From NCBI RefSeq assembly GCF_058153355.1, contig NZ_CM177019.1: a stretch of 64,000 nucleotides of DNA. One strand, 5' to 3'. Position numbers and translations under genes: made by a program. How positions within the stretch are numbered: the stretch's first letter is position 1; each line of letters opens with the position of its first letter. Below are positions 22,159 through 22,217 of the stretch, in pieces. Under the pieces are notes generated by a model. The model made no database searches. It was given only the letters and a program-made list of their open reading frames with translations, and was not told the origin of the DNA.

Positions 22159-22217
22159 TGGGGCATGCATGGGGCAAAAATATTTGTTGTGGGGCATTTT
22201 GGGGCATGATTGGGACA
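22159..22217. repeat. array of five phased TGGGGCA/TGGGACA direct repeats at the prophage right end
   Basis: Copies start at 22159, 22170, 22190, 22200 and 22211 (spacing 11, 20, 10, 11 bp). Confidence 0.6.

Follow-up and report, generated by a model that had tools for sequence, protein, structure and literature searches.

What function could a tight array of five G-rich heptamers serve at the right-hand end of a prophage? In the window (the whole stretch of DNA analyzed, 64,000 nucleotides), the initial annotation had singled out five direct copies of TGGGGCA, one of them spelled TGGGACA, between the promoter of a dinI-like gene and the junction of the prophage with yecE, and had offered three readings of them: arm-type sites of the prophage integrase in attR, sites for an accessory protein, or an operator array. 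Comparing this locus with the attachment sites of related and distant phages, we consider it probable (about 85%, judged from sequence) that the heptamers are putative arm-type sites of the prophage tyrosine integrase and that the window holds the P arm of attR.

The heptamer array in its attR setting

Reading the sequence and searching it by pattern placed the copies on the + strand, with TGGGGCA at 22159-22165, 22170-22176, 22190-22196, and 22200-22206 and TGGGACA at 22211-22217. The start-to-start steps are 11, 20, 10, and 11 bp, in agreement with the initial description (steps of ~10–11 bp and one 20-bp gap), and every copy falls within about 0.1 turn of one face of the helix at 10.5 bp per turn, which bears out the earlier proposal that the sites share one face. 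TGGGGCA occurs nine times in the 64-kb window when both strands are counted, a total near chance expectation, and 4 of these 9 lie inside 48 bp. Four non-overlapping copies per 60 bp is the maximum reached in the window by any 7-mer, and such a cluster was reached in 1 of 200 dinucleotide-preserving shuffles. The pattern TGGGRCA-N4-TGGGRCA is present twice (at 22159 and 22200), a count of two or more that appeared in none of 100 shuffles, and a search of the whole 64 kb with this pair pattern returned no further pair. A repeat search indicated that the true repeat unit is a 21-nt pair, present as TTTTGGGGCATGCATGGGGCA and TTTTGGGGCATGATTGGGACA 41 bp apart; its consensus, TTTTGGGGCATG(C/A)(A/T)TGGG(G/A)CA, occurs twice, with one single extra heptamer between the pairs.

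Next, we examined what borders the array (Table 1). By megablast, 21800-22140, which takes in the dinI-like gene and its promoter, is common to many lambdoid and Stx phages with different integrases (94–98% identity); this homology ends at ~22140, and homology to intact yecE begins at 22335. Lying between these two limits, the stretch 22141-22334 is the att-specific P arm of attR, and on these alignments the array moves with the int/att module and not with the dinI-like gene. With the crossover placed in CACGCAGTTAA, the array stands 118–176 bp to the left of the core, that is, between the dinI-like promoter and the yecE junction and just inside the prophage, where the initial annotation had put it. 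The heptamers thus lie outside the crossover core, and they have no sequence in common with it. An att of 11 bp is annotated in phiP27, and an att of 21 bp is reported for yecE phages (Nakamura et al., PMC8112680). As for the dinI-like gene, the pair of LexA-box-like sequences over its promoter suggests that the prophage end carries a cargo gene under SOS control, and the phi80 annotation has a predicted LexA binding site at the position equivalent to these boxes.

Table 1. Features of the attR region and its neighbors (positions in the 64,000-nucleotide window)
Feature	Position	Strand	Basis or remark
dinI-like gene, neighbor outside the att module	21824-22072	-	ORF; Pfam DinI, E=1.1e-19
dinI-like promoter with two LexA-box-like CTGT-N8-ACAG sequences (22088-22103, 22116-22131) and -35 TTGACA (22137-22132)	22088-22137	-	Sequence, promoter scan
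Putative distal arm-site pair (copies 1 and 2), TGGGGCA tgca TGGGGCA	22159-22176	+	Sequence, pattern search, column conservation
Copy 3, optional extra heptamer	22190-22196	+	Only 16 of the 49 unique P arms have an exact TGGGRCA
Putative proximal arm-site pair (copies 4 and 5), TGGGGCA tgat TGGGACA	22200-22217	+	Found almost throughout the integrase family
Candidate Xis (DUF1233) sites: tandem ~10-bp repeats GAACTTTGCC / GATTTTCATA (22231-22250); TTACATATGA / TTTCATATGA 21 bp apart	22223-22253	+	Repeat search
Sequence fitting the IHF consensus WATCAANNNNTTR (AATCAAAGCGTTG)	22264-22276	-	Consensus match only; position not clearly conserved in other classes
Conserved block TGCTCTTGGGCGTTCTTTAGTGATTTTTAAAAA, 33 bp, 8 bp left of the core	22294-22326	+	Hardly any variation among 9 divergent P arms
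attR core / crossover region, CACGCAGTTAA	22335-22345	+	Alignment of attB, attR, attL, and attP
yecE 5' fragment left at attR, about the first 32 codons	22335-22430	-	Homology to intact yecE; annotated as a partial CDS at the E. coli O121 locus (98.6% identical)
yecD	22427-22993	-	Beyond the yecE fragment; aspS also to the right

Between the heptamers and the core, the P arm holds three further elements. First, tandem repeats of 10–11 bp, with a sequence of their own in each class, follow the proximal pair in every att class examined (for instance, AAGTTCGTTA twice in AsXd-1 and AAATTTCG twice in RothC); by analogy with lambda X1 and X2, the repeats at 22223-22253 are candidate sites for the DUF1233 excisionase. 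Second, there is one match to the IHF consensus. Third, the block next to the core, which contains no clean IHF consensus, is almost invariant among P arms that are otherwise only ~69% identical, and a related block (CTCYTGGRCGWTMTTT...GATTTTTAAAA) recurs in att classes whose cores differ, its spacing to both heptamer pairs being unchanged; the proximal pair thus keeps a fixed position relative to the block (-93/-82) in other att classes. These elements fit the lambda/P2 paradigm loosely.

The left prophage end is absent from the window, which starts in lysis genes inside the prophage. These lysis genes (~711-1506) are followed directly by tail genes (~2260), and the head genes are missing. 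Since the window begins within the prophage and the lysis genes directly precede the tail genes, we conclude that the prophage is defective and that its int end lies outside the window, and for the same reasons this particular copy of the array may be a relic, probably an attR segment left stranded in a prophage that has degraded. As such, the array is an expected component of attR in a degraded Shigella/EIEC-like prophage. We also noticed that the gene J region (10165-13562) is split into two ORFs and that the related O121 prophage is riddled with IS1. Between the tail-fiber genes and dinI, the - strand at 19472-21223 encodes an ipaH-type E3 ligase effector; at the E. coli O121 locus (98.6% identical), the gene is annotated as ipaHd. 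Just downstream of this gene, 21682-21754 gave a match to the Shigella sRNA CssrB that is below threshold (23.8 bits against a gathering score of 76; E=0.022), and the Rfam search of 21400-22700 returned, apart from this, a sub-threshold match to a miRNA model. Given only sub-threshold Rfam matches and a terminator scan that found no terminator, we dropped an RNA reading of the array region.

Heptamer pairs in both arms of related and distant phages

The initial annotation had proposed looking for the heptamer near the left end of the prophage and comparing related attP regions, and in relatives it is found there, with the same motif in the P and the P' arm. PhiR49_2, whose P arm is 96% identical to that of the window, encodes an integrase (437 aa) and an excisionase at its left end, and its P' arm carries TGGGGCAtcatTGGGACA at 78-95, in the same orientation, inside the last int codons and ~64–81 bp beyond the core. 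A P' pair ~64–81 bp beyond the core was also present at attL of E. coli lysogens (three divergence classes), in phiP27, and in CharmingMan, an isolated phage with an intact attP. Heptamer pairs flank the core on both sides in all 8 intact yecE-type attP sites recovered.

To follow the P arm over more loci, we anchored an IMG/VR search on the conserved block by the core, which gave 58 loci with 49 unique P arms. Pairs lie at -135/-124 and -94/-83 relative to the block in almost all of these 49. Copy 3 is degenerate in CharmingMan and phiP27 and is removed by a 10-bp deletion in other variants; the gap between the two P-arm pairs is 41 or 31 bp, a 10-bp step that keeps the helical phase. Among the 41–42 unique yecE-type P arms compared, heptamer columns are 97% conserved versus 69% for the sequence flanking the distal pair and 73% for that flanking the proximal pair. 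One P-arm variant, shared by locus L064 and the PPompW relic, has degenerate heptamers (TGGAACG, TAGGGCA, TGGGACA, and TGGGACG). Since L064 is an intact attP with the same variant as the degenerate PPompW P arm, we rejected the idea that heptamers decay in relics.

The phages that target yecE fall into at least three unrelated P-arm classes, namely the type of the window, the phi330/Stx2_95 type (L142 / L143, Stx2a phage Stx2_95), which has three tandem heptamers, and the L102/L123 type; all three have heptamers, the conserved block, and a yecE-like core in common. In attL of E. coli lysogens (L012-L014, ~430-453), the yecE (DUF72) CDS is annotated into phage DNA and overlaps the int stop codon, so that yecE, interrupted by the phage, seems to receive a new 5' end from it.

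Relic yecE-type attR junctions, consisting of a heptamer P arm and a yecE 5' fragment, were found in phi80 (L005, 2501-2766), mEp237 (L007, 2501-2667), and PPompW (L009, 1501-1670). Those of phi80 and mEp237 are ~1.2 kb from the phage's own attP core, whereas in PPompW some 330 bp separate it from the 121-bp ompW att repeat that follows at the end of the prophage. We had considered phi80 as a relative with possibly known arm sites; because its matches, like those of mEp237, are relic junctions ~1.2 kb from the real phi80 attP, they are uninformative on phi80 Int, and this candidate was set aside. In PPompW, the left flank of the site called attB-in-PP_1 is 69% identical to 22153-22330 of the window. 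This site was shown to be a secondary insertion site in a study that treats it as yecE-derived and in whose main text the word "arm" is absent (Nakamura et al. 2021, PMC8112680). The alignment suggests that attB-in-PP_1 is a captured attR junction, made of a P arm and a yecE 5' fragment.

We then turned to phages that insert elsewhere. A tblastn search found integrase homologues in 245 phage records, including 933W at 68% identity, and we compared seven phages that have such homologues, other insertion sites, and intact attP regions. In 6 of these 7 distant phages (integrases 52–79% identical), a TGGGGCA-N4-TGGGRCA pair is present in each arm: Klebsiella RothC, phi330, IdasGreatGrand, a 933W-type phage, Aeromonas AsXd-1, and Providencia PSTRCR_117lys. 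The exception, Yersinia phage YP3, has the P' pair only. In the six, the P' pair is at or in the int 3' end, and the distance from P to P' pair is 207–211 bp in five and 226 bp in phi330. The DNA around the pairs is unrelated between att classes; the proximal pair is the one that lies ~207–211 bp from the P' pair, and the distal pair is also present in the 933W-type attP. A Rac-type integrase (43% identity) has no C-terminal tail, and the stretch examined for it has no pairs. Searching with the two-pair pattern alone retrieved 64 IMG/VR loci in 28 sequence classes, with a start-to-start distance that peaks at 207–208 bp (38 of 64 loci) and minor groups at 198–199 and 216–219 bp. In the sequence examined around these 64 loci, a PF12167-type integrase N-domain was found at 37 and a DUF1233-like Xis at 35.

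The cognate integrase, read from a relative, is ~437 aa long and has an N-terminal arm-binding domain (Arm-DNA-bind_2, PF12167, E=9.8e-24, residues 7-70), a core-binding domain, and a catalytic domain, with Phage_integrase also matched in Pfam; the associated Xis is DUF1233 in Pfam. Integrases with PF12167 (DUF3596) have been described as the IntBPP-1 subgroup, with the putative integrases of BPP-1, an Stx2a phage, and Gifsy-2 cited as members and an arm-binding domain of three beta-strands and one helix (Smyshlyaev et al. 2021, PMC8138268), and the presence of this domain places the cognate integrase in that subgroup. Among 11 integrases, mean pairwise identity is 82% in the N-terminal domain, 59% in residues 71-200, and 71% in residues 201-400. 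The arm-binding domain is therefore the best conserved part of the protein, the pattern that would be expected if arm specificity were fixed and core specificity diverging. The motif likewise tracks the arm-binding domain and not core specificity, the same pairs being present in six phages with other insertion sites.

The P' heptamers lie in coding sequence, where they encode an int tail motif, A/V-P-x-M/L/V-P/S-H/Q, with the two heptamers in two different reading frames. Across 88 columns with an invariant amino acid that has four or six codons, the third base is invariant in only 2, and one of these is the Pro codon CCA inside a P' heptamer. In phiP27, a Pro-to-Ser change in a P' heptamer still spells TGGGACA. 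The third-base invariance, the two reading frames, and the serine codon that preserves TGGGACA indicate that the constraint in the P' arm is on the DNA word and not on the protein.

The likely binder of the heptamers

The pairs in both arms of relatives, their recurrence in 6 of 7 distant phages, and an integrase that carries an arm-binding domain support the arm-type reading, the first of the three that were offered initially. We infer that the N-terminal domain of the integrase is what binds the heptamers. By analogy with lambda and P2, this domain of an integrase subunit would hold a heptamer while the C-terminal domains bind the core ~120–180 bp away, and bending of the DNA by host or phage proteins would close the loop to give the recombination complex (intasome). 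In most family members, the two P and two P' heptamers could then supply one site for each of the four subunits in an integrase tetramer. A further, distal pair lies 31 or 41 bp upstream in the yecE and 933W types, and the two P-arm pairs may be used differently in integration and excision, like P1 and P2 of lambda. Observations that count against the arm-type reading are the degenerate heptamers in the P-arm variant of L064 and PPompW, the single P' pair of YP3, and the pairs that stand beside Firmicutes-type integrases in which PF12167 is not detectable, with a serine recombinase at one locus.

The literature searched, which leaves most subscription-journal papers outside its coverage, contained no binding or recombination experiment on the heptamer motif and nothing joining "arm-type" with yecE, or with 933W and attP; papers that have TGGGGCA together with integrase or attP deal with other subjects than the motif, apart from a table in a Streptococcus agalactiae study taken up below. 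In that literature, then, the heptamer motif of a large integrase family is not described, although the kind of feature is ordinary. Related yecE phages excise and circularize, and the accessible part of the paper that reports this describes no site mutants (PMC8112680).

The heptamers could instead be sites of the excisionase, or recombination directionality factor (RDF), in which case the DUF1233 Xis would polymerize on the phased repeats of the attR P arm, bending the DNA and steering recombination toward excision. RDF sites typically take the form of phased direct repeats in a P arm. Lambda has such repeats in its P arm as the Xis sites X1, X1.5, and X2. In Gifsy-1, the Xis site is tripartite (PMC2603039). 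A DUF1233 Xis gene also lies beside the integrase gene in nearly all heptamer loci, even L092 and L104 having divergent DUF1233-like Xis genes, and because the two genes co-occur in this way, presence and absence cannot tell Int from Xis as the binder. Position and divergence, however, argue against Xis. An RDF array would be expected in one arm, between the proximal site and the core, but the heptamers are outermost in the P arm, and a further pair of them lies past the core in the P' arm, within int, a location at which no RDF sites would be expected. Nor does the motif co-vary with the RDF protein: Xis identity goes down to 40–49% (mean column identity 50%, the helix-turn-helix region being relatively conserved) while the heptamer stays unchanged, compared to a mean of 82% for the integrase N-domain. 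Finally, the class-variable ~10-bp repeats that adjoin the proximal pair are separate from the heptamers and occupy the position of lambda's Xis sites, and it is these neighboring repeats that we propose as Xis-site candidates. We therefore regard the accessory-protein reading of the heptamers as unlikely.

A host factor common to many bacteria might also bind the heptamers, and in its favor, motif and geometry recur in phages from both Proteobacteria and low-GC hosts although the integrase N-termini are dissimilar. Outside the array, however, the motif is no commoner in the window than chance, and it tracks the attP sites of tyrosine integrases specifically; moreover, no host att-accessory factor (IHF, Fis, or HU) is known to recognize TGGGGCA. 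We hold this to be very unlikely.

The operator array of the initial annotation would serve the SOS-regulated dinI-like gene or another phage transcript, and the first heptamer does lie 22 bp past the dinI-like -35 hexamer. Against this, the dinI gene with its promoter and LexA boxes adjoins other integrases in many phages without the array, the homology breaking off at 22140 before the first heptamer, so that the array does not travel with the promoter it would regulate. In addition, it recurs in attP sites with no dinI nearby and inside int, and the LexA-box-like sequences already account for dinI regulation, which together leave the operator reading with hardly any standing. Equally little speaks for the repeats as a by-product, lacking a function of their own, of simple tandem duplication or of a small ORF (22169-22345, 58 aa), which spans the array through to the core, is annotated as L58 in phiP27, and is open in about half of the variants, but is closed in CharmingMan-type intact attP and many others and is shifted in frame by the 10-bp indel, while the 11-bp spacing is not a codon periodicity and the heptamers are conserved in unrelated arms and, read in two frames, within another gene, int.

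Known attachment sites and a possible wider code

The arm motif of lambda, roughly C/AAGTCACTAT, differs from the TGGGRCA described here. In layout, the putative arm sites resemble those of lambda (P1, P2, P'1–P'3) in that a short motif unrelated to the core is present in both arms, ~60–180 bp from the crossover. As with lambda Int, the cognate integrase has a separate N-terminal arm-binding domain, and the excisionase gene adjoins int; a candidate IHF site and candidate Xis repeats lie between arm sites and core, as in the lambda-type scheme of arm sites and accessory proteins (summarized in PMC2951348). Unlike in lambda, the arm-binding domain is PF12167 and not of the lambda-type Pfam family, the sites all point in one direction and form 11-bp-spaced pairs, and the P' sites are inside the int coding sequence.

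Among published systems, the P2-like phages offer the nearest analogue; they have two direct repeats on each side of the core and integrases with conserved terminal domains and a variable core-binding domain (PMC3448106). The evolutionary pattern of the P2/186 arm sites (consensus tgTGGaCa or tgccGCCActt) is the same as the one measured here, and TTGGGACA resembles the P2/186-type TGTGGACA. The differences are that the present integrase is of the IntBPP-1 (PF12167) type, that the RDF is a DUF1233 Xis and not Cox or Apl, that a distal pair is added in the yecE and 933W types, and that the phages are lambdoid and not P2-like. The IntS-TorI system of KplE1/HK620 is likewise an enterobacterial prophage att with several arm-type sites and separate RDF sites (PMC2951348), but its P' sites overlap the intS promoter and have a TAAA motif, whereas here the P' sites are at the int 3' end and the motif is G-rich.

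Whether a prophage recombines, and in which direction, is decided by its arm sites, and the present integrase family mobilizes many Shiga-toxin and effector prophages (933W type at wrbA, yecE and yehV types). The heptamer, the fixed spacing between the arms, and the core-adjacent block make up a sequence signature for locating attP, attL, and attR. It helps in recognizing relic junctions, such as the yecE-derived secondary attB in PPompW and that in phi80, and it can help in designing integrase tools that retain the arms but have an altered core specificity. The result is of use mainly to specialists in Stx-phage integration and is unsurprising in principle.

A broader generalization can be put forward tentatively, namely that TGGGGCA-N4-TGGGRCA pairs ~207 bp apart (varying in 10-bp steps) around the core are a near-universal arm-site code of IntBPP-1 integrases; on present evidence we lean against it. 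The IntBPP-1 members examined come from 933W/Stx phages, yecE-type phages, and Klebsiella, Aeromonas, and Providencia phages. If the code were true, attP sites and prophage ends would be predictable from sequence alone, and some published "att sites" would be arm sites and not crossover cores. A possible case is found in a study of S. agalactiae prophages, which gives TTATAGTTGGGGCGAATTTGGGGCATAA as an "attachment site" (PMC11357604); to us TTATAGTTGGGGCGAATTTGGGGCATAA looks like an arm pair.

Pairs of TGGGGCA 198–216 bp apart also flank tyrosine integrases in five IMG/VR loci of low GC content (L082, L084, L086, L109, and L117; GC 40–50%), with the heptamers of L084 inverted relative to int. 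The integrases at such loci have N-termini such as MWxExLxNGK... and no PF12167 match (Firmicutes-type), and comparison of PF12167 with the Firmicutes-type N-domains by hhalign gave a probability of 10.6% (E=0.003). If the code also holds for these low-GC integrases lacking PF12167, it could mean that an ancient arm-binding specificity was kept while core specificity diversified. Finally, L090 and L109 have attP DNA with pairs in common, and in place of the L109 tyrosine integrase, L090 (1569-3426) has a large serine recombinase; this difference may reflect a swap of the recombinase module that left relic arm sites behind.
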